In this document: positions 69-30,474 of the stretch, piece by piece
Layout: the number at the start of each line of letters is the position of its first letter
How positions within the stretch are numbered: position 1 is the stretch's first letter
Assembly: GCA_964611235.1 (NCBI GenBank)
Contig: CAZSWH010000002.1
Location: forward strand, 1 to 38,460
Reading direction: 5' to 3'
Source of the DNA: Candidatus Woesearchaeota archaeon
GTDB lineage: Archaea > Nanobdellota > Nanobdellia > Pacearchaeales > GW2011-AR1
DNA length: 38,460 nt
Made by a program: the position numbers and the translations under genes
The notes under the pieces: generated by a model
The model's input: the letters and a program-made list of their open reading frames with translations, nothing else
What the model was told of the DNA's origin: nothing
Databases searched by the model: none

Positions 69-854
69 TCATTTGAATTTCTCTCCTATTTCTTTAATTG
101 ACTTTTCTGTGTAACAAGTAATTCTTCCTGGCTCTCCATTTGGCGACAGGTCGCTTATTCTTAAATTGTTTACATTAACTACATCAATTCCTTTTCTTTT
201 CATTTTCTTTCCACTTGATATAATAAATAAAAGTCCTGCATTTGATTTATATTTTCTCCCCCTCATTTTTCCTTTTCCTTTTCTGATTGTTTTTTTCTTT
301 ATTGCTTTATTAAAATTCTCTTCAAAAACTTTTTTTAATAAACCAAAAAATCCTTTAGTTTTTAGTTCTAAAACTTTTTCCTCAAATATAATTCCAGAAA
401 TAATTTTCTTTCCATATTTTTTCTCAATACATTTTGAGTCTAATGTTCCTGTGAGTGCAGAATTAAAAGCGATTGATAATTCTTTTTTATTTATTTTTTT
501 GAAAGGGTTTTTCTCGCTTCTTGGGGCGTGAGGTTTTCTCCCTCCGCGTGTGTTTGATACAGTTGCACCAATCCAATTAAAGCTGGAACCATGTCTTGAT
601 AAAATTTTGCGGGGGATTCTTGAAATTCCTCTTCCGTAAGTTGTTTTCCATACATGTCTTCGGTGTTTTAAAATTCCTGACGCAGAATATTGTGCTCCTG
701 CATCTTTCATAGCCCCATAAGGTTGAGCGTAAACCCCTTTTTGCGCTTCAAAAACTTTTGATAAAATGTCTTCACGAATTCTCGCAGAGAAATTTTTTGG
801 CAACTCTAAATTTCCTTTTTCTTTTCCATATTGGTCTATTATTTTTGCTTTCAT
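69..854 (-). CDS. rpl4: 50S ribosomal protein L4 (uL4)
   Basis: Typical archaeal L4 sequence (MKAKIIDQYGKEKGNLELP..., GRGISRIPR, GGRKPHAPR) and position after rpl3. I prefer the ATG at 852-854 (MKAKII) over 875 because it forms an ATGA overlap with the stop of the upstream ORF. Confidence 0.9.
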   Translation of the reverse strand: MKAKIIDQYGKEKGNLELPKNFSARIREDILSKVFEAQKGVYAQPYGAMKDAGAQYSASGILKHRRHVWKTTYGRGISRIPRKILSRHGSSFNWIGATVSNTRGGRKPHAPRSEKNPFKKINKKELSIAFNSALTGTLDSKCIEKKYGKKIISGIIFEEKVLELKTKGFFGLLKKVFEENFNKAIKKKTIRKGKGKMRGRKYKSNAGLLFIISSGKKMKRKGIDVVNVNNLRISDLSPNGEPGRITCYTEKSIKEIGEKFK

Positions 855-1219
855 CCTGCTATTAACTCTAAACATTTATCATAATAAGAAGGGTCACCAC
901 TGTTAATTCCTGTTCTTCTTTTTACTTCAATTACAATAGTGCCTTTGCTACAATAAAGTAATTTATCTTTGAGGTTAGGAACTGTAAAACAAAACATTCC
1001 TCCATCAATCTGTCCACTACTCTCAGGAACAGCATAATCAAAAATTCTATTTTTTTCTTCATCAAACCATAAAAAAATAATTTTTCCGTTATCATACCTA
1101 ATTCTAAAGACCACTTCAAACTCTTTTTTATCTGAGAGATTTTTTGCTATAAAACACGTTCCATTAGGCATAGTTTCGAAATCATCTAGATAATCTAAAA
1201 ATTTAACTAGTTTTTTCAT
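851..1219 (-). CDS. Hypothetical 122-aa protein inserted between rpl3 and rpl4
   Basis: Complete ORF with ordinary globular composition. Its ATG (1217-1219) overlaps the rpl3 TGA (1216-1218) and its TGA (851-853) overlaps the rpl4 ATG (852-854). I recognised no family motif. Confidence 0.6.
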   Translation of the reverse strand: MKKLVKFLDYLDDFETMPNGTCFIAKNLSDKKEFEVVFRIRYDNGKIIFLWFDEEKNRIFDYAVPESSGQIDGGMFCFTVPNLKDKLLYCSKGTIVIEVKRRTGINSGDPSYYDKCLELIAG

Positions 1220-13512: not shown

Positions 13513-13570
13513 AACAAGGAAAGAAAATGTTAGTTTAAATTTATTTCTATAAGATAAAAAAATAAAAGAA

Positions 13571-13598
13571 AAAGAAAAAAAGGGGAAAACCCCTAATT
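13571..13598 (-). terminator. Hairpin plus oligo-T terminator (duplicate of the S-layer terminator)
   Basis: On the minus strand, GGGG-TTTT-CCCC (13582-13593) is followed by a T-run, directly after the stop at 13599-13601. Confidence 0.6.
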
Positions 13599-13811
13599 TT
13601 AAACGACTACAAACTTTTCTTCAATTATTCTGGATATTGGTTTACTGGTTTTTTTGCTTAATTTTTTTAGTTTTGTTAAGGTTTCAGTTGATAAAGTTAT
13701 ATCTATCCTTTTTCTTTCAAATGGAAGTTTGTGAGTATTGTCGTATTTTTCCAGTGCATCAAAAACTTCTTTGTATTTTCTTAAAATATTTTTTATTTCT
13801 TTTTGATTCAT
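13599..13811 (-). CDS. Ribbon-helix-helix (CopG-like) protein, putative antitoxin partner of Doc
   Basis: C-terminal half RKRIDITLSTETLTKLKKLSKKTSKPISRIIEEKF has the strand-helix-helix RHH pattern. Its start lies 1 nt after the doc stop. Confidence 0.55.
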   Translation of the reverse strand: MNQKEIKNILRKYKEVFDALEKYDNTHKLPFERKRIDITLSTETLTKLKKLSKKTSKPISRIIEEKFVVV

Positions 13812-14154: not shown

Positions 14155-14204
14155 AAATAATAGTAAGAAGTATATAAATCTTTCTGCAGGAGAAAAAGAA
14201 AAGA

Positions 14205-14237
14205 AAAAAAAGAAAAAAAGGGGAAAAACCCCTAATT
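14205..14237 (-). terminator. Hairpin plus oligo-T terminator of the S-layer gene
   Basis: On the minus strand, GGGG-TTTTT-CCCC (14220-14232) is followed by a long T-run immediately after the stop at 14238-14240. Confidence 0.6.
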
Positions 14238-16364
14238 TTAAACGACTACAAGAGTAGCTTCAGTAGTTGAAGTTCCTAAGTATTTCTTACCAACTGTTGT
14301 ATCAACATCTTGGTTAAGCAAGTATGTTTGAGCTTTTTCAGTATCAGCAGCATGGTAGCCAGCAACTAACAAAGCAGTCTTTCCAGCTCTGTTAAAGGAT
14401 TGTATCAGGAATTCTCCTGCGTCAACACCTGTTGCAGCAGTAAATGCGCTTTCTCTGTAAGCACCACCAAGTAATTCAGCAGCAATAGCATTAATAGCAG
14501 AACCTCCTACAACAACTAAATTCTTACCCACCATTTGGGAAGTTTCAGTGTCTTTAAGGATTATCGCACCAGCTTCGCCTCCTGAAGGTGTGCCTCCAGC
14601 AAGAACAGAAACTTTACCATAAACTTGGTCACTTGGAACACTAAAGATAACTTCATCATTATCTAAGTTTGCCTCAGGAGTCTTGATAATCTGACCGTTT
14701 GTAGTCATAATATCATTATCATAAGTTCCAACATTTGTGCTTGCAACTAACAAATCACCTGCAAGAGCAGCTTCTTTATCAGTAGCTTCTGTGTTGTTTC
14801 CAAACCACTTCAAAGTACCACCAGCACCATTTAAGATTGCATCTCCGCCTACATCAACTGAAAATGCTTGAGCAGCACCACCATCTGTGAAAGTTATGAC
14901 TAAGTTACCTAAAGTAACTGCAGCACTCATAGCGATAGTAGTATCTCCTACAATTATATCACCTAAATCTTGTGCTGAGAAGTTTCCATGCGTTGCATTA
15001 GTTGAAGCATAAGCAACCGAAAATCTTGGCTTTATAGCATCTTGAACAGTTCCGTCCACATCACTATAAAACACTTCTAATGTAGCAACCGATTGAGTTC
15101 CTTGAGTCTCTTGTGTAGAGTTAGCCCATCTAAGATAAATCTTATTGGTCTCTTGAGAACCATTAGTCAATGTAATAGCATCTTCTCTTCCATCAACAGC
15201 TTCTATAATCAAAACAGGAGCATCCAAAGTTTGAGCAGTAGATGTTAAGTCGGTATTATTCCAAAGGTCTTCTGCATCGTCAAAGTAAATCTTGAAATCC
15301 TCATAATCTACATCTGTGAGTCCATCAAATTTAATTTCTGCGAAGTTCTCAGGAAAAACATAACTTCCACCTGAATAAACTACATCATCAGTATCTCTCG
15401 TCTGTTTGTAGTTGTATTTAACACCAATATAACTTGCTGCCTCACCTAAAGTACCACCTATAGTCCATACCCATTCAGGGTCTGTCTCATCTTCACCAAT
15501 GTATTCTTCACCATCAGTATATGTCTTTGAAATATCTTCTCCAATCTTCAAAACTACTCTGCTAAGTTCAGGTGCATTAGAATGATAACCAATAGTGTCA
15601 ACCTCAACTCTCATACCATTTATCTTCTTAGTCCCTGATGAGGATATGATTTCTCCATTAACTTCAACACTATCACTAAAAATGCTATCTACTGTAAAGG
15701 TTTTACCGCCAACAGTAGCACTTCCCCCAACACTAAGAGAAAATTTTTCAGATGTAACTACAGTAATTGAACTTGCAGTCATAGAAGTTATCTCATATTG
15801 CTTTCCAAGAATTGTAAGATATAAATCATCTGCATCATCAGTCCCAACTAATGTAACATTGATAGCAGTACCAAAAACAAGTCTATACTCGATAGCTTTA
15901 TCATTAGTTAAAGCAACATTCTCAGCGAAGTCGTTGTCGTCAAAAGTTGTTTTAAGATTGATACTATCTGCAGTCAAGACAATCTGTTCGTCAATATCAT
16001 AATTAGCAGAACCTGTTCCATCATCCCAACTTATTCTTTCATCAAGAAGAGATGAAACCTTTGAATCAGTTATTGATGGAGGAATTTTCCCTGAGATAAT
16101 ATCTCCTCCAAGAGGAATTTCATCTTCAGTAACTCCACTTCCACCAGTCAAAGTAACACCACTTGTTGTAGCAACTGAGTTTAAGTTTGAAACTATATTG
16201 CTTGCGGAAGTAAAATCAGACGGGGCTGCACTAGCACCGTAGACAACTGCTGTATTGCTTGTAAATGGGCTTGGATAAGAAGCTGCGATAGCTCCACCAA
16301 TTGTAGCGCCAACTAAAACAACACTACTTAATACTGTTATAGCTTTTCTAAATATTTTTTTCAT
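14238..16364 (-). CDS. S-layer (surface layer) protein
   Basis: Signal peptide (AITVLSSVVLVGATIGGAIAAS). Ala/Thr/Gly/Asp-rich with no Cys. C-terminal block KNLVVVGGSAINAIAAELLGG ... GKTALLVAGYHAADTEKAQ resembles the euryarchaeal S-layer C-domain. Strong SD (AAGGAGGT at 16373-16380), a long leader, a strong terminator, and a G+C content clearly above its neighbours. Confidence 0.7.
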   Translation of the reverse strand: MKKIFRKAITVLSSVVLVGATIGGAIAASYPSPFTSNTAVVYGASAAPSDFTSASNIVSNLNSVATTSGVTLTGGSGVTEDEIPLGGDIISGKIPPSITDSKVSSLLDERISWDDGTGSANYDIDEQIVLTADSINLKTTFDDNDFAENVALTNDKAIEYRLVFGTAINVTLVGTDDADDLYLTILGKQYEITSMTASSITVVTSEKFSLSVGGSATVGGKTFTVDSIFSDSVEVNGEIISSSGTKKINGMRVEVDTIGYHSNAPELSRVVLKIGEDISKTYTDGEEYIGEDETDPEWVWTIGGTLGEAASYIGVKYNYKQTRDTDDVVYSGGSYVFPENFAEIKFDGLTDVDYEDFKIYFDDAEDLWNNTDLTSTAQTLDAPVLIIEAVDGREDAITLTNGSQETNKIYLRWANSTQETQGTQSVATLEVFYSDVDGTVQDAIKPRFSVAYASTNATHGNFSAQDLGDIIVGDTTIAMSAAVTLGNLVITFTDGGAAQAFSVDVGGDAILNGAGGTLKWFGNNTEATDKEAALAGDLLVASTNVGTYDNDIMTTNGQIIKTPEANLDNDEVIFSVPSDQVYGKVSVLAGGTPSGGEAGAIILKDTETSQMVGKNLVVVGGSAINAIAAELLGGAYRESAFTAATGVDAGEFLIQSFNRAGKTALLVAGYHAADTEKAQTYLLNQDVDTTVGKKYLGTSTTEATLVVV

Positions 16365-22895: not shown

Positions 22896-24668
22896 TTAAT
22901 TAATTTCATTCCAATCATCTCCTGATATTGCTCGGACTATCATTCCTGTGAAACCGCCTTTTATTTTGTTTATTGTGTTTGGTGCGAAGTTTTTTACTTT
23001 CCCGTCAATTTTCCAATCATATCCTTCATCTGTGTATTTTTCTATATAGTTGATGTATCCACCGCAGTCGCCGAGTGATGTGCAGATTCGGTTCGCTTCA
23101 AGAGCCCATTGTTCTTCTAGGCATTCTTTTCCTTCAATAATTTTTTCATTTCCGAAAACGTCTTTTTCTTTTACAACTGTGCATTGTGCACTTGCCTGAC
23201 CGCATATTTGCTGTGAGTTGGCGTCATCCCAGAAGTTTAGTCCTGGCGGGAATTGAGGGACGCAAACTCTCTTTTCACCTGAATATGTTGTTTCACTTCC
23301 GCTTGTTTCAAGGCCTGTTATTGGTGCGATTGAATTTCCTGTTGCTGTTGGGTTTGTAAATGCTTTGCTTTCTCCAGCAGTTGGATTTGAGAAACCTGTT
23401 GTTTGTCCGCTTTCGGAGGTTCCTGCTCCTAAAGTCATTCCAGTTACATGAGGTAACCACTGGCAATCTCTTTTGTCAATATTGAGACAATCTTTTTCTT
23501 TTGTCTGTAAAACACAATCTTGCCAGCGATTTACTCTGCAGGCAGCTGTCTGGAAGAATCCACTGTCTGTTTCTATTCCTCCTTCAAGACATATTTCATT
23601 TCTGTATTCTGCACACGGCTCGACTTTTACTTCTCCGTCCACGCAAATTTCTCTAAAGTATCTTGAACCAACTTTATCTAATCCCTTTCCCACATTTCCA
23701 TCATAGACACACCAACTCTCTCCATTAATTCTTTTGTTTCCATTTCTATCCACACATTCTGTTCGCTTACAATAATAATCACTTCCTGCTGGTTTTCCAA
23801 TGTTTAAAGTTCCGTCCCATACAGCACATCTGCTTCCTAATAAATATTCACAATTTCCACAATCTTTATTTGAGCCGTCGTTTGGAGAACAGACCAAATC
23901 AGGTTCTAAAACTCGACCATTGTTCCAACTTTTATCTTTGTTTGAAGAATAAACATTTTCGCGATTGCCACAAGAATCTGTCCAGTAAACTTTTCCATTG
24001 TAGCAGGTAGTTGAGACTTGTCTTGCACAGATTGTGTTGAGCTCTTCTGCCGAACATAGTAAGTCCTTATAGAATTTTTTTTCAGAAGAGGAAGAATTTT
24101 CTATTGTTTCTACTTGTTCTAATGCTCCGCAGTCTACTCTTGTTGTGAATTTGCAGACTCTTTCATAATCTTTTTCATAAACGCACGCCCCTATATCTTG
24201 CGACTGAGCCGCAGCTATACACTGAATTTCAGATGTGATTTCTGTTCTATAATTGTTTTCAACTCCAAAGAAACTTGATAATCTTTTGCATCGGACTAAT
24301 GAGACAAACGCAGCTTGGTCAGAAATGATGCAACATCCTAATTGGCATTGGGGGACTTCTGTAATTGAACGGCTATCCCAAGTTCCTCCACTACTCGAAC
24401 AGACACTTTGAGGCGTATTTTCCATACAGATTCCTTCAGAAGAATCATAGCAAGTTCCTAATCTACAATAAGATGTTGTTTCACAGGAAGTCATAGAACT
24501 TTTGAAATTAGGGTCGCAATTTTCTTCTTCTGTGTTAATACAATAAGCTCCTCCTTTTGTTTTCTCGCAACAACTGCTCGGCTCTGACAGAGTAGTCGCC
24601 GAGGAGACAATTCCTATTAAAGAAAATAATATTAAGATTCCGATTGAAAGGATTATTTTTTTATTCAT
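22896..24668 (-). CDS. Secreted cysteine-rich protein (paralog of the N-terminal half of 25822-29502)
   Basis: Signal peptide MNKKIILSIGILILFSLIGIVSSA. NGESWCVYDGNVGKGLDKVGSRYFREICVDGEVKVEPCAEYRNEIC aligns with NGESWCVYDGKIGGGDDIVGSRHWRYVCNNGEIQVEPCADYRNQIC. The ATG at 24666-24668 is preferred over the TTG at 24674. Confidence 0.6.
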   Translation of the reverse strand: MNKKIILSIGILILFSLIGIVSSATTLSEPSSCCEKTKGGAYCINTEEENCDPNFKSSMTSCETTSYCRLGTCYDSSEGICMENTPQSVCSSSGGTWDSRSITEVPQCQLGCCIISDQAAFVSLVRCKRLSSFFGVENNYRTEITSEIQCIAAAQSQDIGACVYEKDYERVCKFTTRVDCGALEQVETIENSSSSEKKFYKDLLCSAEELNTICARQVSTTCYNGKVYWTDSCGNRENVYSSNKDKSWNNGRVLEPDLVCSPNDGSNKDCGNCEYLLGSRCAVWDGTLNIGKPAGSDYYCKRTECVDRNGNKRINGESWCVYDGNVGKGLDKVGSRYFREICVDGEVKVEPCAEYRNEICLEGGIETDSGFFQTAACRVNRWQDCVLQTKEKDCLNIDKRDCQWLPHVTGMTLGAGTSESGQTTGFSNPTAGESKAFTNPTATGNSIAPITGLETSGSETTYSGEKRVCVPQFPPGLNFWDDANSQQICGQASAQCTVVKEKDVFGNEKIIEGKECLEEQWALEANRICTSLGDCGGYINYIEKYTDEGYDWKIDGKVKNFAPNTINKIKGGFTGMIVRAISGDDWNEIN

Positions 24669-24744
24669 TAGCAAATCGCAGATTTGATTAGAACTGACTT
24701 GTTCAGTTCACAATCTTTCTTATCTGCCTCCAATATTTTATTTA
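24669..24744 (-). repeat. Leader repeat copy 2: promoter/5' leader hairpin element ending 9 nt before the ATG of 22896-24668
   Basis: 68 of its nt match 1-68 with one mismatch, and it shares cattagcaaatcgcagatttgattagaactgacttgttcagttcacaa with copy 3. Confidence 0.8.
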
Positions 24745-25031
24745 CCACTTTTATATTCCTCTTTAATAAAATATACTATTAAACTTATAATCGTATATAG
24801 AATTATTATTAATCCAAAGAGCAAGACAGAAGCAAGAGCTCCTGCTAAAATTTGCCCTTTTGAATTTAAATTCTCTGTAATAATATTCGGAAGAACGGCT
24901 GATGTATAAATAATCCAAATAAAGAAAGCAAAGATAAGGGTAAGAATCACTTTCCATTTGCCTGGCTTCAAAAATTCAAATATTTCTTTTAACTTTTCTG
25001 GTTTTCCTAATATTCCTTTTTTTGTTATCAT
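24738..25031 (-). CDS. Small membrane protein (2 TM segments)
   Basis: Two hydrophobic helices. The ATG at 25029-25031 forms an ATGA overlap with the stop of the upstream gene (25028-25030), so it is preferred over 25052. Confidence 0.5.
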   Translation of the reverse strand: MITKKGILGKPEKLKEIFEFLKPGKWKVILTLIFAFFIWIIYTSAVLPNIITENLNSKGQILAGALASVLLFGLIIILYTIISLIVYFIKEEYKSGK

Positions 25032-25777
25032 CCGAAATATCCTGCTGGCCACGCAATGCTCCTGCTGGCGAACTGAAATTTATTTTCAAATATTTTGCTA
25101 TTGATTGTGTAAACTGTTGTCCCGTCGTCCATTTTCATTTTTTCAATGTAGTAATCAGGATAAAAGTCATTTATGTAATCCACATCAGAATCCCCATAGG
25201 CAGTTTCAAATTGGAGGAGTGAAGTAGCGAGCATTAAAATATCGTAGAGAGGAGAGTTGACTTCAATATTAAATCTTGAAAATTTCCCGGGGCCGATTGT
25301 GGTAGGGGCATTAATAAAGATTTTTATGATTTCAGGTTCTATTGAAATGTTGTAGTTCAATTTTCCTGGGGTGACATCATAGCCTTCTGCTTTTAATTCT
25401 GAAAGAGAATCTTCATAACAATTGTTTATTTTTTGAGAAACATATTTTTCTAACTGCTCTTCAAAATGCTGTTTTAAAAAAGGTTTTTGGATAGTGCATG
25501 TTTTATAATACTCAGTAGTGTAACAAAGGTAAGTAATTTTCTCGTCTTTGTAAGGATAAGTAAGTTCAGGATTTATGTAGCCTGCATTTTTTTCTAATTC
25601 TTTAACAGATTCTTCTATTGTTTCCCTGACGCATCCTTCAAAACTTAATTTTCCTCCTCTCTCTGAGATATAAGTTGGTCTAAACCATAAAAAGAAAATT
25701 AGAATAATTGAGATAATAACAATCCCTAAAATAATAAATAATGTTACCTGCCCTTTTTTTGCGAACCTCTTTCCCAT
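25028..25777 (-). CDS. Prepilin-like protein, paralog of 29499-30248
   Basis: N-terminus MGKRFAKKGQVTLFIILGIVIISIILIFF. Shared blocks with the paralog: C-V-x-E-x-IE-x-SV, TYLCY..YY..C, PLY, and a C-terminal (A/S)-x-(W/F)P(A/P)G. Confidence 0.55.
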   Translation of the reverse strand: MGKRFAKKGQVTLFIILGIVIISIILIFFLWFRPTYISERGGKLSFEGCVRETIEESVKELEKNAGYINPELTYPYKDEKITYLCYTTEYYKTCTIQKPFLKQHFEEQLEKYVSQKINNCYEDSLSELKAEGYDVTPGKLNYNISIEPEIIKIFINAPTTIGPGKFSRFNIEVNSPLYDILMLATSLLQFETAYGDSDVDYINDFYPDYYIEKMKMDDGTTVYTINSKIFENKFQFASRSIAWPAGYFG

Positions 25778-25821
25778 CTTTATTTTAGTTATTTTCTATT
25801 TATAAATTCTATTATATTGCA

Positions 25822-28800
25822 TTAAGTAGGAGAAATAGTAATGGAGCACCCTGCTGGAAGATTTTCGAACTCGTCCTTGCATTTGATATAATAAATTTGT
25901 CCGCGGAATATTTCTATAGTGTGTTTTTCTCCAAGAGAAGTTGATGTTTCATTATTCCATTTAAATTCGCAGTTGGTTTTAGAATAACTGCACTCTGCTG
26001 GTTCGTTTGTGATAAAATATATTTTTCCTTTTTCCTGCCAAACTCTTGCTATCTGTGGCGATGAACTGTCAATTTCAGATTCTTCCTCCTCTTCCTCCTC
26101 TTCCTCGTAATTTTCTGTTTCATATGAACTGTCAAGTAAGATTTCAAATTCTGCCTTTCCTCTTACGAAGTCACCTGTTTCATCTTTACATTCAATATAA
26201 ATTATGTTTTGTTTTGAAGGGACGCTTAAGCCTGGTTGTTTGTGGATTCTTGCTTCGCCTGTCTCAAAAATTTCTATCATTTTTTCGTAGCCTGACATTG
26301 AGTATGAACAAATATGGTATTCTCCTCCGCCTGAAGTTCTTACCTGAATTTCTATTGTAGTGAATTCTGTTGAGGTTCTGAAATCCTCATTTGGGGCAAT
26401 CCAATCTATTGTGATTTTGCTTTCAGGTTTTCTCAGTGTATATAGTGTGCTTTGCGTGTTGGCGTTTCTTTCGTTGCTTCGGTTTAATTCTTCAAGCCAT
26501 GGCTGGTCTTTGCATCTTATATAGTATTTGTTTTCAATGGATGTTATCGATAGGGTTGTTTCGCAGGAATATCCTTGTGTTGATGATGGCGATTCAAACC
26601 CATCTTCACAAATCATTTTATTGTTCATCATAGAGTAATCTTTGTCTGAGGTGTCCCATTTACAAGTAGATAGTTCGTTTGTTATTACTTTGATTTTTTC
26701 TTCTGTTGAATTGAAACTGATTAATCTATTGTCTTCAGGTTCTATTGCACGGATTCTTGGGGCGGTTTTGTCCGGTCCTTGATTGACGCACATATCTATT
26801 GTATAAAAGTTCTGAGTCTCGTGTCCGTTAGTGTCTTGGCATTTTACATAAAGAGTCAATTCTCCAGACCAATCAACTCCGTGGCTCTCTCCGTGGCTCG
26901 GGTCAGGAAGCGTGAAAAACATTGTGTGGTTATATCCAAAAAGATTTGAGCCGAAGTCAAAGTTCATTTCAGAGAAGTCTTTCATTTCTAAGTCAAATCT
27001 GCATTGCGCTGGTTCGTCTGTTGTGATTCCAAATAAGATATCAGTGTAAGCGTCAAGGCATTCTCCTTGAGTAGAGGAAATTTTGAATCCTTTGTCAGAT
27101 ATGCTACTGTATTTTTTATTTTCAGAGATTACTCCATATTGTGGTTGGAGCTTTGGAGGGATTACATCATTTGGGTTTTTGTGGACACATAGTTCGTTGT
27201 TTGTTCCTTTGTTTACTAATTCGCAGGCAGCACCTAAATTTTGGCATCTGTATTCAGAGCAGGGCTTTAGCGGGTCGCCATTACATTTTTCACAATCGCT
27301 TCCTCCTGTCGGCGGTTGCCATGGTTTGCATTCAAATGTAACTGTTTTTGGGTCGCAGTCAGAACCTCCGAAGAATAAAGAGATGATTGTAAGAATGATT
27401 CCTATAATCATAAGAGGAGCAAATAAGGCTCCTAATTCGATAATACCTAAAACCTGAGTCATTGCTGATCCAACCATACTCCCACCAACAGCCATTAAAA
27501 TTGAACCAATAGGAGCGAGCCCAAGGGCTTTGGCTAAATAAGCTCCTGTAAGCATTCCGATGCCTGCTCCAATCGCAGCGCCGGCAAAACCTGCCATATT
27601 AGCAGTAAATCCTGCCCCCACTGGATCAACAAGTGGTGCAGCTATACCAGAAAGCTCTGCAAGAGTTAGACTTCCTGTAGCATAAACTCCTGCAGCATAT
27701 CCTATCCCTAAAAATCCTGCCCCTGTTTTCATAAAATCACTTGTTATATCATAATCTTCTCCATTTTCTCCACCGCTTATAACTCCTGCAGATTTAAGGT
27801 ATTTAGTATAATCTTCAACTTCTGCTCTCTGCCCTGGAATAGGATTTGCTAATTGTTTTAATTTATTTATCCATGAAGAACTTAGCCTTGGGGCTTTTGT
27901 AACTTTATAATTTTCAGTGTATTTTCCTACAATGTTTACTTCGCCTCCACAATCGCCGAGTGACCTGCAAAAGTCGTTCATTTTTTGTGTGAATTCTTCT
28001 GTTAAACAATCTCCATTATATTCTATCTCACATCCTCCAAATAGTTTTGGTTTATAGACAACTGTGCATTTTTGCGTTGCCATTCCACAGATGGCTTTTG
28101 CTGTTTCAGAGTATCTCTGGTCAGTTAAATCAAAACCTGCAGGATATTTTGGAGTGCACACATCAAAACTAAATTTATCTGCTATATTCACTTTTTCTAT
28201 TCTGCAATTTAGAGTTTTTGCACATTTTTCCAAGCCGTCTTCTTCGCTGTTAAGGGAAATACATTCTCTCCAATTGTTTGCTACACAAGAAGATGTTCTA
28301 AATTCAATTTCTTTTCCTTCTATGTCAAAAGTGTTTGATTGAATACAAATCTGGTTTCTATAATCAGCACATGGCTCAACTTGTATTTCTCCATTGTTGC
28401 AGACATATCGCCAGTGTCTTGAGCCGACTATATCATCTCCTCCTCCAATTTTTCCGTCATAAACGCACCAGCTCTCTCCATTCTTGTATGCCTCTCCCTT
28501 GAACATACAGGAAGTTGGTTTGCAGTAGAAATTTCCTGAATTAACGTTGAAGTTATTTGCCCCAGCAGAAGAACATATTCCCCCTAAAAATCTATTGCAG
28601 TTTCCACAGGTTTTGCTGTTGGCATTTCCATCTTTATTACTCGCTCCGCAACTTTCTTCCAGCGGGGCGATTTTTTCCCAGTAATTTTGGTCATTCATTT
28701 TTGAGCTGTCATAAATATTGGCTATGTTACCACAAGAATCCAAGAAATAAACTCCATCTTTTCCATCAATACAGGCTGTTTGAGTTGTTTTTTCACAGGA

Positions 28801-29502
28801 AGTGTTAAGTTCTTTTGAGGTGCATAAATATCCTTCATTAAATTCCCCTTTATAATTTAGGCAACTTTTTTCTGTTATTAATTTACATTCTCCTCCGCCA
28901 AGAACGCACGCTCCTTCTTTTTGGGTTGATGAAAGTAATATGCATTGAAGTTCGTTTAAGTCTGATTTCCATTCCAGTTCTAACCCTCTCCACGAACTTT
29001 CTGTCTGGCATTGTCCTTGTGTTACGAATAGTGAGATACTCCCCAAGACACAGCATCCTTTTTTTGCTCCAGGGAGATTGCAGTTTGGGTCAGAGTTCCA
29101 ACTTGCAGTGCAGTCAGCTCTTAAAACATTGTTGTCATAAATTCCTTTTTTTTCATTATAACAACAGCCTTTTACACAAAAGGAGGTGCTTGAGCAGAGT
29201 GCTCCTTCAGCGAATTGTCCTGCGCAGTATTCTTCAGTTGAAGTCGCACATTTTTCACTATTTTTATTGATTGAACAACATCCAATTTGTTGTGCTGAAA
29301 CGACCTGGAAAAGGGGTGTTCTAATTTTTTTGTATATCCCTATTAATGCTTTTTCAATTAAGTTGTTTTTTTTGGGGTTTATTCCAAAGTAGTCTTCGTT
29401 GAATAGATTTCTTGAAGAATAGAGGATATAGGAAAAAGCGAAAGTTGAACTTATAATTAATATTAATTCAAAATAAGTGATGATTATCTTTTTTGTTTTC
29501 AT
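25822..29502 (-). CDS. Giant (1226 aa) cysteine-rich membrane protein: N-terminal Cys-rich ectodomain, Gly-zipper hydrophobic region, C-terminal repeat ectodomain
   Basis: Equals the 590-aa type plus the 742-aa type in one chain (alignments given for those two features). The ATG at 29500-29502 forms an ATGA overlap with the upstream stop. Includes a poly-Glu linker (EEEEEEEE). Confidence 0.65.
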   Translation of the reverse strand: MKTKKIIITYFELILIISSTFAFSYILYSSRNLFNEDYFGINPKKNNLIEKALIGIYKKIRTPLFQVVSAQQIGCCSINKNSEKCATSTEEYCAGQFAEGALCSSTSFCVKGCCYNEKKGIYDNNVLRADCTASWNSDPNCNLPGAKKGCCVLGSISLFVTQGQCQTESSWRGLELEWKSDLNELQCILLSSTQKEGACVLGGGECKLITEKSCLNYKGEFNEGYLCTSKELNTSCEKTTQTACIDGKDGVYFLDSCGNIANIYDSSKMNDQNYWEKIAPLEESCGASNKDGNANSKTCGNCNRFLGGICSSAGANNFNVNSGNFYCKPTSCMFKGEAYKNGESWCVYDGKIGGGDDIVGSRHWRYVCNNGEIQVEPCADYRNQICIQSNTFDIEGKEIEFRTSSCVANNWRECISLNSEEDGLEKCAKTLNCRIEKVNIADKFSFDVCTPKYPAGFDLTDQRYSETAKAICGMATQKCTVVYKPKLFGGCEIEYNGDCLTEEFTQKMNDFCRSLGDCGGEVNIVGKYTENYKVTKAPRLSSSWINKLKQLANPIPGQRAEVEDYTKYLKSAGVISGGENGEDYDITSDFMKTGAGFLGIGYAAGVYATGSLTLAELSGIAAPLVDPVGAGFTANMAGFAGAAIGAGIGMLTGAYLAKALGLAPIGSILMAVGGSMVGSAMTQVLGIIELGALFAPLMIIGIILTIISLFFGGSDCDPKTVTFECKPWQPPTGGSDCEKCNGDPLKPCSEYRCQNLGAACELVNKGTNNELCVHKNPNDVIPPKLQPQYGVISENKKYSSISDKGFKISSTQGECLDAYTDILFGITTDEPAQCRFDLEMKDFSEMNFDFGSNLFGYNHTMFFTLPDPSHGESHGVDWSGELTLYVKCQDTNGHETQNFYTIDMCVNQGPDKTAPRIRAIEPEDNRLISFNSTEEKIKVITNELSTCKWDTSDKDYSMMNNKMICEDGFESPSSTQGYSCETTLSITSIENKYYIRCKDQPWLEELNRSNERNANTQSTLYTLRKPESKITIDWIAPNEDFRTSTEFTTIEIQVRTSGGGEYHICSYSMSGYEKMIEIFETGEARIHKQPGLSVPSKQNIIYIECKDETGDFVRGKAEFEILLDSSYETENYEEEEEEEEESEIDSSSPQIARVWQEKGKIYFITNEPAECSYSKTNCEFKWNNETSTSLGEKHTIEIFRGQIYYIKCKDEFENLPAGCSITISPT

Positions 29503-30248
29503 ATTCCTGGAGGAAACGCGCAACTCCGAATTGCAAATTTAAATTCTTTTCCAGTCTTCTTATCTACCACTTTGTAAATTTTACTGCCATCGAAGTCGAT
29601 TCTCCATATTTTATATTCTGGGTGGAGGAGCATATAACTGTTATATTCGAAATAGCAATATTGTGATTCGCTGTTGGTAATCTCTCTTGCTATATTAATT
29701 AATTCATAAAGAGGGAACAATAAATCAAAGCTGAAATCTTCAAAATTCTGGGAACTTTCGTCTTTTAATATCTGAACTTTCTTTTTTACATCCACTCTTA
29801 TTTTTCCAGGAAGTAAAATAATTGAAAGATTTGTAGCACCCCCACTGACCTCAAGACCCTCTCCTTCATAATCTTCTTTCATTCTGTTGAAACAATCTTG
29901 AACTTCATTTTTAATATCCTCTTTTATTTCATACTCTATTTTTTCCTGAAGTATTGGGTAAAGATTATAACAAGAAAGGTAATAGTCCCCTTGATAACAA
30001 AGATAAGTGTAATATTCTCCGTCGTATAAAATTTTTTGTTGTTGTTGGAGTCCTCCCCCATTTTTTAATATAATATCAACTGACTTTTCTATCGATTCTT
30101 TTACACATTTCTGAATGTAACTTTTGGGGTTGGTGATTATTGGTTTCTCATCTTTAATTTTGTTTGAAAGAAGAAAGAAAAGAATAATGACTATAAATAT
30201 TAATATTCCAAGGATAATAAAAATCGTGACCTGTCCTTTATTTTTCAT
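29499..30248 (-). CDS. Prepilin-like protein, first gene of the locus
   Basis: N-terminus MKNKGQVTIFIILGILIFIVIILFF (KGQ followed by a hydrophobic helix). The ATG at 30246-30248 is preferred over the TTG at 30254. Confidence 0.55.
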   Translation of the reverse strand: MKNKGQVTIFIILGILIFIVIILFFLLSNKIKDEKPIITNPKSYIQKCVKESIEKSVDIILKNGGGLQQQQKILYDGEYYTYLCYQGDYYLSCYNLYPILQEKIEYEIKEDIKNEVQDCFNRMKEDYEGEGLEVSGGATNLSIILLPGKIRVDVKKKVQILKDESSQNFEDFSFDLLFPLYELINIAREITNSESQYCYFEYNSYMLLHPEYKIWRIDFDGSKIYKVVDKKTGKEFKFAIRSCAFPPGI

Positions 30249-30329
30249 TAGCAAATCGCAGATTTGATTAGAACTGACTTGTTCAGTTCACAACCTTCCC
30301 TTCACTGCCTTCAGGATTTTATTTTTCAT
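30249..30329 (-). repeat. Leader repeat copy 3 (more diverged distal half)
   Basis: The proximal 48 nt (including the ATG) are identical to copy 2. The distal part is diverged, with one indel, but keeps the hairpin core. Confidence 0.75.
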
Positions 30330-30474
30330 TTTCCTCTCTAAAAAGCAAATCTATTGCAGCTTCGATAACATGGGATTTATTTCTAAAATTTCTCTTTTTA
30401 GTAATTTCTTTTATTTTCTGAATAGTTTCTTTTTCTACACTGGCGGAAATTCTTTTTTTTGTAATTGTGAGAAT
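30319..30474 (-). CDS. Possible ribbon-helix-helix (CopG-like) DNA-binding protein; no canonical start codon found
   Basis: Minus-strand frame reads ..ITKKRISASVEKETIQKIKEITKKRNFRNKSHVIEAAIDLLFREENEK* with a typical RHH strand-helix-helix pattern. The open frame after the stop at 30484-30486 contains only ATA/ATT/TTA-type codons, so the start is unresolved. Confidence 0.3.
   Translation of the reverse strand: MLTITKKRISASVEKETIQKIKEITKKRNFRNKSHVIEAAIDLLFREENEK

Follow-up and report, generated by a model that had tools for sequence, protein, structure and literature searches.

A repeat at start codons of a Pacearchaeota-like DPANN archaeon: a putative family of intercistronic insertion elements with a relay reading frame

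The window analysed here is a whole contig of 38,460 nt from a low-GC archaeon. It carries a short, hairpin-forming sequence three times on its minus strand, each time directly before the start codon of another gene. The question that this locus raises is whether such a repeat serves the genes that it precedes or has been inserted between genes that can tolerate it. The initial annotation took the repeat for a promoter and leader in which a hairpin brings a distant GGAGG close to the start codon. With moderate confidence we regard it instead as a family of intercistronic insertion elements of 83–101 nt in a Pacearchaeota-like DPANN clade, in which a relay open reading frame (ORF) and a Shine-Dalgarno (SD) sequence would preserve translation.

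Three copies in the window

The three minus-strand copies reported in the initial annotation are all present. A search with a 35-nt core pattern gave exactly three matches, and no match in any of 100 shuffles. Over 68 nt, copies 1 and 2 show one difference (C/T), and copies 2 and 3 are identical across the 49 nt preceding the ATG and divergent 5′ of that, with a 1-nt indel. The description of the GGAGG, the 9-nt spacer and the TAATG agrees with the sequence, as do the GGUU that replaces GAUU in copy 3 and the indel that ends its small ORF at codon 13. The copies had been given narrower limits, and the natural unit rather runs from an ATG or GTG to the downstream ATG (1–72, 24666–24748 and 30246–30329). 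The gene supposed to lie unseen to the left of the window does exist, and the L4 look-up described below identified it as rpl23. The features of the three copies (c1–c3), all on the minus strand, are as follows.

1–72, minus: copy 1, type A, cut short at the end of the contig, between rpl4 (69–854) and rpl23 (off the window)
70–72, minus: leader ATG of copy 1, overlapping the rpl4 stop TGA at 69–71
51–55, 27–33/15–21 and 5–10, minus: GGAGG, hairpin P2 and 5′ arm of hairpin P3 of copy 1
69–854, minus: rpl4, upstream neighbour of copy 1, identified by Pfam PF00573 and exact protein look-up
24666–24748, minus: copy 2, type A, with a 104-aa membrane ORF on one side and the gene of a 590-aa Cys-rich secreted protein on the other
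24746–24748, minus: leader GTG of copy 2
24742–24744 and 24738–24740, minus: stops of copy 2, TAA in frame +1 and TAA in frame +2, the latter being the stop of the upstream gene
24666–24670, minus: TAATG stop/start that ends the putative relay ORF (26 codons) of copy 2
24727–24731, minus: SD-like GGAGG of copy 2, at the 5′ foot of the long-range stem
24691–24709, minus: P2 of copy 2, GAACUGA-ACAAG-UCAGUUC, supported by column-pair changes and RNAalifold
24672–24686, minus: P3 of copy 2, CAAAUC-UGC-GAUUUG, directly before CUAAUG
24722–24727/24678–24683, minus: outer stem GCAGAU/AUCUGC of the initial annotation in copy 2, which excludes P3
22896–24668, minus: gene of the 590-aa Cys-rich secreted protein, with its ATG formed by the final three bases of copy 2
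30246–30329, minus: copy 3, type A but divergent in its 5′ half, with an RHH ORF on one side and a 249-aa pilin-like gene with a class-III signal on the other
30288–30290, minus: TGA of the copy 3 leader ORF, 13 codons long after a 1-nt insertion
30308–30312, minus: GAAGG of copy 3, in place of GGAGG
30283–30289/30271–30277 and 30261–30266/30252–30257, minus: P2 and P3 of copy 3
29499–30248, minus: 249-aa pilin-like gene (MKNKGQ...), whose ATG is the final three bases of copy 3

The complete copy 1 is visible in contig L005 (6910–6992), and the rpl4 stop falls within the first four bases of the element. Copy 3 is bracketed by a 13-nt direct repeat, AATGAAAAATAAA, and is unchanged in three other JGI samples.

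Several features of the surroundings were also recorded. The region 22896–30248 (minus strand) is a duplicated module. It contains, in series, two pilin-like paralogues of 249 aa, whose class-III signal is KGQ, and a pair of Cys-rich secreted paralogues of 590 and 1233 aa; one gene of each pair is preceded by a copy of the element (copies 2 and 3). The first 21 nt of the 590-aa Cys-rich gene (ATGAATAAAAAAATAATCCTT; window 24648–24668) match the start of rpl23 (L005 6990–7010) at 20 of 21 positions, and its paralogue begins MKTKKIII. Judged from this match, copy 2 may be a duplicate of copy 1 that took some adjoining rpl23 codons along, or the identity may be an AT-rich coincidence. The RHH_1-domain ORF 5′ of copy 3 (30325–30465, minus strand) has no in-frame ATG, GTG or TTG start and is uncalled in the JGI contigs; 5′ of it follows an AT-rich region with the repeated motif ATATTATATATT.

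Source contig and assembly

The contig encodes L3, L4, S19e, L31e, PCNA, primase, archease, prefoldin and SepF, together with a PACE-CTERM S-layer protein. The nearest L4 proteins come from MAGs of Pacearchaeota, Woesearchaeota and Nanoarchaeota. An exact look-up of L4 with the start MKAK led to contigs from the same population. Exact-protein look-ups gave no record for the 268-aa L4 ORF, the 590-aa protein and the 104-aa protein, and that of PCNA did not extend the contig.

The left end of the contig falls inside copy 1, and the short-read contigs L007, L008 and L073 also end within the element, which makes four breaks. Breaks inside the element are explained by its nature, as a multi-copy repeat is expected to break short-read assembly. 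Because the contig starts in the repeat and other short-read contigs break there, bases 1–35 of copy 1 could have been influenced by the assembly. Besides breaking short-read assemblies, the element gives rise to spurious small ORF calls (36 and 33 aa in the JGI data) and misleads the annotation of start codons, so that the start of rps4e is miscalled in several contigs. The latter is annotated inconsistently, as MPKIW... or as MHIKRSKMPKIW... (L066 4741–4762 and other contigs). Comparison with relatives shows that the native rps4e is the longer form, starting at the TAATG of the element.

Insertion into tight gene junctions

In L005 the spacer between rpl4 and rpl23 is 76 nt long and is filled by the element, whose terminal TAATG provides the rpl23 start. 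The two genes overlap or abut in 34 of 34 GTDB relatives (L4 identity 78–35 %) and are likewise free of a spacer in an 85 %-identical relative (...TTCAGATGAGCAAAACAATAAT...). Since 35 related genomes have no spacer at this junction, copy 1 is an insertion specific to this lineage, placed where stop and start overlap within the ribosomal-protein operon.

The same pattern was found at a second junction of this operon. A fourth copy (c4) lies in L005 between rpl24 and rps4e. Its 5′ 40 nt and its 3′ CGCTAATG are shared, and its middle differs. In relatives the tail of L24 (...NAHKKK*) overlaps the start of S4e (MHIKRSKMP), and here the element splits that overlap. The ORF of c4 was called by JGI as a 36-aa gene, and a search with its peptide recovered a 33-aa relative on contigs of the same population, which hold a head-to-tail tandem of type B followed by type A (c5 and c6). 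Profile searches of fetched loci added the following copies in four related species.

c7, L060: between rpl23 and rpl2
c8, L030: between rps3 and rpl29
c9, L014: between rpl23 and rpl2
c10, L014: between rps4e and rpl5
c11, L013: between rpl22 and rps3
c12, L014: weaker candidate, between rpl19e and rpl18

The analyses use 11 copies at ten insertion sites, seven of them in ribosomal-protein operons and three at other junctions (one being the tandem of two subtypes); these proportions carry a sampling bias, as the copies of relatives were found only in loci centred on the ribosomal-protein operon. Six copies were present in the ~56 kb sampled from one population, with identities of up to 98 % within a genome, and the orthologous sites in relatives are empty. 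Element length ranges from 83 to 101 nt. Over 19 ribosomal-protein junctions in ~37 genomes, the median gaps ranged from −31 to +17 nt and were mostly a few nt from zero, inserts being sporadic; the element family is one kind among these. No additional copies were found by covariance model R1 in 671 kb of relatives. The hairpin-pattern scan had no match in viral or GTDB genome collections, and its metagenome version gave only four unrelated coding matches. A second viral scan, for the 5′ module, and a phage BLAST also had no match.

The placement of the element is precise at both ends. Every copy ends right before the downstream ATG, usually as CTAATG, and opens with an ATG or GTG at −11 to +4 nt from the upstream stop. 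In the bases that follow this ATG or GTG (RWAAATAA), both frame +1 and frame +2 meet a stop no more than 11 nt on, and the upstream gene therefore terminates in these A-rich codons. Sister species begin their native rpl5 with the 14 nt found at the 5′ end of the element (L060 with ATGAAAAATAAAATG, L009 with ATGGTAAATAAAATG), a hint that the element arose from gene starts or recombined with them. When a partial duplication of rpl5 was considered, the identity extended over 14 nt only (26 nt for c10, z about 3) and wider similarity was weak; for such an origin this is suggestive only.

Conserved hairpins

Copies 1 and 2 fold better than shuffled sequences (z = −3.2 and −3.6), and copy 3 does so more weakly (z = −1.9). 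In the MAFFT alignment A1 the type A stem GAACUGA/UCAGUUC shares columns with the type B stem CAAUGRC/GYCCUUG. In P2 (columns 42–49/53–60) and P3 (columns 64–71/91–98) 81 % of the cells are paired, compared with 33–48 % when the partners are slid, and both sides have changed in 8 of the 16 column pairs. The covariation score is 0.277 against 0.02–0.08 in the slid controls, and none of 500 shuffles reaches it. For P2 itself, both-side changes occur in five of eight column pairs (11 copies), and RNAalifold recovers the hairpin independently with compensatory changes in five of six pairs. The inner hairpin GAACUGA/UCAGUUC of the initial annotation is thus borne out by compensatory changes across 11 copies from at least five species. 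With a small sample of copies that share a common descent, the statistics for P2 and P3 are indicative only. Counterparts of P3 in other copies are CAAAAAC/GUUUUUG, GUAAAAAC/GUUUUUAC and GCAAAAAC/GUUUUCGC. The outer stem GCAGAU/AUCUGC, as originally drawn, is not conserved across the family, and it cannot form together with the better-supported P3, which overlaps its partner AUCUGC.

Natural variation was observed in the same stems. Copy 1 in five other assemblies (L005, L006, L065, L066 and L067) has two G→T changes, which break P2 and P3. The same G of UCAGUUC in the 3′ arm of P2 has changed independently in two copies (L005 6965 and L063 3428), being G→T in copy 1 in the five assemblies and G→A in copy 6 in two, and each change breaks the central C–G pair of P2. 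Given these variants, P2 and P3 may not be under strong selection in the host. Searches of the window against Rfam 15 returned nothing at the gathering threshold; at E ≤ 10 the best E-values were 3–9, from unrelated snoRNA and miRNA models.

Shine-Dalgarno placement and regulatory readings

Each copy has one SD, located either 5′ or 3′ and never at both places. In c1–c7 GGAGG (GAAGG in c3) lies near the 5′ end and is followed directly by CAGR, which is predicted to be pairable with YCUG 8–12 nt before the AUG. Copies c8–c11 are without the 5′ motif and have GGAGG, AGGAG or GGAG 9–12 nt before the AUG, in or beside the loop of P3. The S-layer gene of the host also has GGAGG 9 nt before its ATG. 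On the predicted pairing, a split SD is plausible.

This arrangement could be that of a selected cis-regulatory mRNA leader, whose hairpin moves the distant GGAGG beside the AUG; the split ribosome-binding site formed in this way would set or regulate how the downstream gene is translated, possibly by switching between the long-range stem and P3. The predicted pairing in c1–c7 agrees with this idea, as does the canonical SD in the copies that are without a 5′ one. The long-range stem and P3 are mutually exclusive in a switch-like manner, c4 has a good fold in the sense strand only (−25.6 versus −14.3 kcal/mol), and there is a precedent in T4 genes 25 and 38 (PMC3014915). However, the genes downstream of the element are unrelated (rpl23, rps4e, rpl2, the pilin-like gene and the secreted protein), and it occurs sporadically among close relatives. 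The closing stem CAGR/YCUG, which competes with P3, shows no column-wise covariation, and the position of its partner shifts between subtypes. Moreover, stem-breaking polymorphisms persist and there is no matching Rfam family. We consider a dedicated leader unlikely.

A promoter in the element was rejected on the basis of the host promoter consensus and the operon context. The first genes of the host are mostly leaderless and have a TTTAAATA/TTTATAAA box 26–34 nt before the ATG. Copy 1 and c4 lie inside a ribosomal-protein operon, and the element has no box resembling the host consensus at that distance. The TATA-like box AAAATAAAATAT proposed earlier is unlike the host promoters and contains the stop codons that end the upstream gene.

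Alternatively, the hairpins might act in RNA processing or stability in the manner of REP/ERIC, by protecting mRNA segments from exonucleases or marking cleavage, so that operon segments could vary in abundance independently of one another, an effect that would account for the spread and retention of the element. Two conserved hairpins at transcribed intercistronic positions are what such a role would predict, and many other species-specific hairpin arrays, including ones with UUCG loops, occur at ribosomal-protein junctions of the clade. Nevertheless, the exact placement at start codons, the stops in two frames and the open frame ending in TAATG would all remain unexplained, and we give this possibility a rather low probability.

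The initial annotation also offered a palindromic DNA operator, for example for the RHH protein encoded 5′ of copy 3, and P2 and P3 are indeed inverted repeats in DNA, with the RHH ORF adjoining copy 3. This is very improbable and was rejected, as it is the structure and not the sequence that is conserved: P2 varies in sequence while its pairing persists, G–U pairs included, and copies are found in ribosomal-protein operons, species and sites with no RHH gene nearby.

The short leader frame

The frame that starts at the 5′ ATG is open up to the downstream ATG in nine of 11 copies, with a chance expectation of 0.03–0.2 per copy for these 11 sequences, which are related by descent. In six copies its stop is the TAA of TAATG (overlap −1), and in three it lies 6–19 nt beyond the A of the downstream ATG (overlap −7 to −20). 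The leader of c3 and c12 stops early at the TGA of GTGAA, so that the downstream termination-reinitiation (TeRe) junction fails, and both copies persist. At the upstream junction, the distance from the upstream stop to the leader start falls within TeRe range in all copies.

Between c5, c9 and c7, each of the three possible frames is used over the homologous P2 DNA, and the resulting leader peptides are unrelated (MKNKISEADKKDC..., MKNKYRRQERKIV... and MGNENIGTIRIKLCND...). As the same DNA is read in three frames, the peptide is not conserved; what the copies have retained is not a protein but a frame that stays open and in register with the start downstream. The earlier proposal of a leader ORF thus holds for the ORF, which is maintained, and fails for the peptide. 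Since its first 14 nt coincide with the beginning of rpl5 in sister species, the element could owe the openness of the frame partly to a coding ancestor. That the frame of 26–36 codons encodes a functional microprotein, as its openness and the three synonymous changes between c4 and c5 in the ORF frame might suggest, is hardly credible given the three frames over homologous DNA, the unrelated peptides and the truncation in c3 and c12, and we rejected it.

Four other identities were tried and rejected. There is no bulge-helix-bulge geometry for a BHB intron, the flanking genes are separate proteins and not products of a bypass like that of T4 gene 60, an attC-like site would need RYYYAAC/GTTRRRY cores that are missing, and the element has no C or D boxes of a C/D box sRNA.

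A relay of translation through the insert

The element sits between genes whose translation is expected to be coupled. In H. volcanii and E. coli the coupling of termination and reinitiation drops steeply with distance and is absent at ~20 nt or more (PMC10666635). An untranslated insert of 80–100 nt would therefore uncouple rpl23 from rpl4, and it is for this reason that we infer the short frame to be a relay. Ribosomes that reach the end of the upstream gene, or that its old SD brings in, would initiate at the element's own ATG, translate through the element while melting P2 and P3, stop at UAAUG and restart on the downstream gene. Because the insert overlaps the upstream stop and ends at TAATG, such a short cistron would restore two successive coupling junctions. 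The SD would offer a second, de novo entry route, lying 9–12 nt before the AUG in some copies and being brought to 8–12 nt by the long-range stem in the subfamily of the window. The element could in this way be tolerated between essential ribosomal-protein genes at little cost.

As this layout would cost little even between such genes, we regard the element as mobile or spread by recombination and as largely selfish or neutral, and not as a dedicated regulator. A copied intercistronic element of this kind is probably mobile. The element has no terminal inverted repeats, and searches with Pfam, NCBIfam and PHROGs found no transposase or recombinase in the 38-kb window. The flanking direct repeats vary (3, 4, 4, 5, 5, 6, 6, 8 and 13 nt), and for this reason no known transposition chemistry fits. 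We propose only tentatively that the family represents a new class of archaeal mobile elements that targets the start codons of tightly coupled genes and brings its own cassette of stop, relay ORF, hairpin, SD and start. Our literature search found no description of start-codon precision, two-frame stops or a relay ORF in such elements. If there is such a class, the structured inserts at ribosomal-protein junctions across DPANN would belong to the same phenomenon.

If the relay operates as proposed, the element would be a natural bicistronic coupler that is able to colonise essential ribosomal-protein operons without breaking translational coupling, that is, a selfish insertion rendered harmless within the most conserved and tightly coupled operons of a reduced genome. 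To our knowledge, translation signals of DPANN archaea are almost unstudied, and the element provides a defined example on which termination-reinitiation and the use of SDs in these organisms could be tested.

Other inserts and repeats

Several further inserts were seen in the ribosomal-protein operons. A 122-aa ORF (851–1219, minus strand) lies between rpl3 and rpl4, overlaps both and has no family match. The 85 %-identical relative L059 lacks this ORF and has overlapping rpl3 and rpl4 genes, and the junction holds inserts of 190–450 nt in other genomes of the clade. In the population of the window, rpl23 and rpl2 are separated by a 108-aa ORF that matches no family (L005 7249–7575). It begins with ATGGGAA, as rpl2 does, and other samples have a 47-aa variant that arose by a 183-nt deletion (L066 633–776). 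We found no similarity between the 108-aa and the 122-aa ORF.

Ribosomal-protein junctions of other species (L024–L027, L025 and L035) carry different short structured inserts, which include ATGAAATCGGAGATTTCAT hairpins across the stop/start, arrays of UUCG-loop hairpins (GGCTTCGCC and GACGCTTCGCGTC) and repeats such as GGTCGGTGGTCGG. These inserts mostly end with GGAGG before the ATG.

Elsewhere in the window, an 88-nt direct repeat with 76 % identity (13536–13623 and 14175–14262), which includes GGGGAAAACCCC followed by TAATTTTAAACGACTACAA, flanks an RHH_3-Fic/DOC gene pair. From its sequence, this pair could be a small cassette with terminator-like ends.

Comparison with known systems

The element shares its general build with MITEs, ERIC/IRU, Correia/NEMIS, REP/BIME and Rickettsia RPE, being short (~80–100 nt), multi-copy and hairpin-forming. 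Like these small intergenic repeats of bacteria, it sits at transcribed intergenic positions in operons, is sporadic between relatives, forms subfamilies with conserved ends and a variable middle, and inserts in tandem. Unlike them, it lies exactly at start codons, always in sense orientation, and has stops in two frames, an open frame from ATG to TAATG and an SD. It also resides in a DPANN archaeon, and the window shows no transposase that could be its partner. A MITE in the strict sense does not fit, since the 5′ ATGRWAAATAAAAT and the 3′ GATTTGCTA are not inverted repeats, the hairpins are internal only, and the direct repeats of 3–13 nt show no target duplication of fixed length.

PATEs derived from IS200/IS605 and REPINs resemble the element in having hairpins in place of terminal inverted repeats, no fixed target duplication and a short conserved sequence at the flank and the element end; here this is (A)ATG, which abuts every copy. 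As this flank is a start codon, selection may explain its conservation as well as targeting does. In contrast to PATEs and REPINs, P2 and P3 differ in sequence and are confined to the 3′ half, which leaves the 5′ end free of hairpins, and no TnpA or RAYT was found in the window.

In its junctions the element resembles overlapping TeRe gene pairs (Huber et al. 2019, PMC6728339; 2023, PMC10666635), with ATGA, TAATG and distances of −11 to +4 nt, and the ancestral junctions are ATGA-type overlaps. The difference is that here, by analogy, an inserted short cistron would relay the coupling over 80–100 nt. The placement of the SD recalls T4 genes 25 and 38, in which an intervening structure reduces the spacing of a split SD from 27 to 11 and from 22 to 5 nt (PMC3014915). 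In our element, too, a predicted structure would cut the spacing of a distant SD to 8–12 nt. Unlike in T4, two internal hairpins lie in the 45–60 nt of intervening RNA, P3 is in competition with the closing stem, the element is repeated at unrelated genes, and c8–c11 have an ordinary SD.

The relay that we propose also has an engineered parallel. Synthetic translational couplers of bicistronic design (BCD) were reportedly described by Mutalik et al. in Nat Methods in 2013. In BCD a short leader cistron with an internal SD ends in a TAATG that overlaps the gene of interest, and expression is independent of context because of the helicase activity of the ribosome. By analogy, the short cistron of our element, with its SD and terminal TAATG, would be a natural counterpart of these engineered couplers if the relay reading is true, differing from them in its natural origin and, in the subtype of the window, in an SD that lies far from the TAATG.
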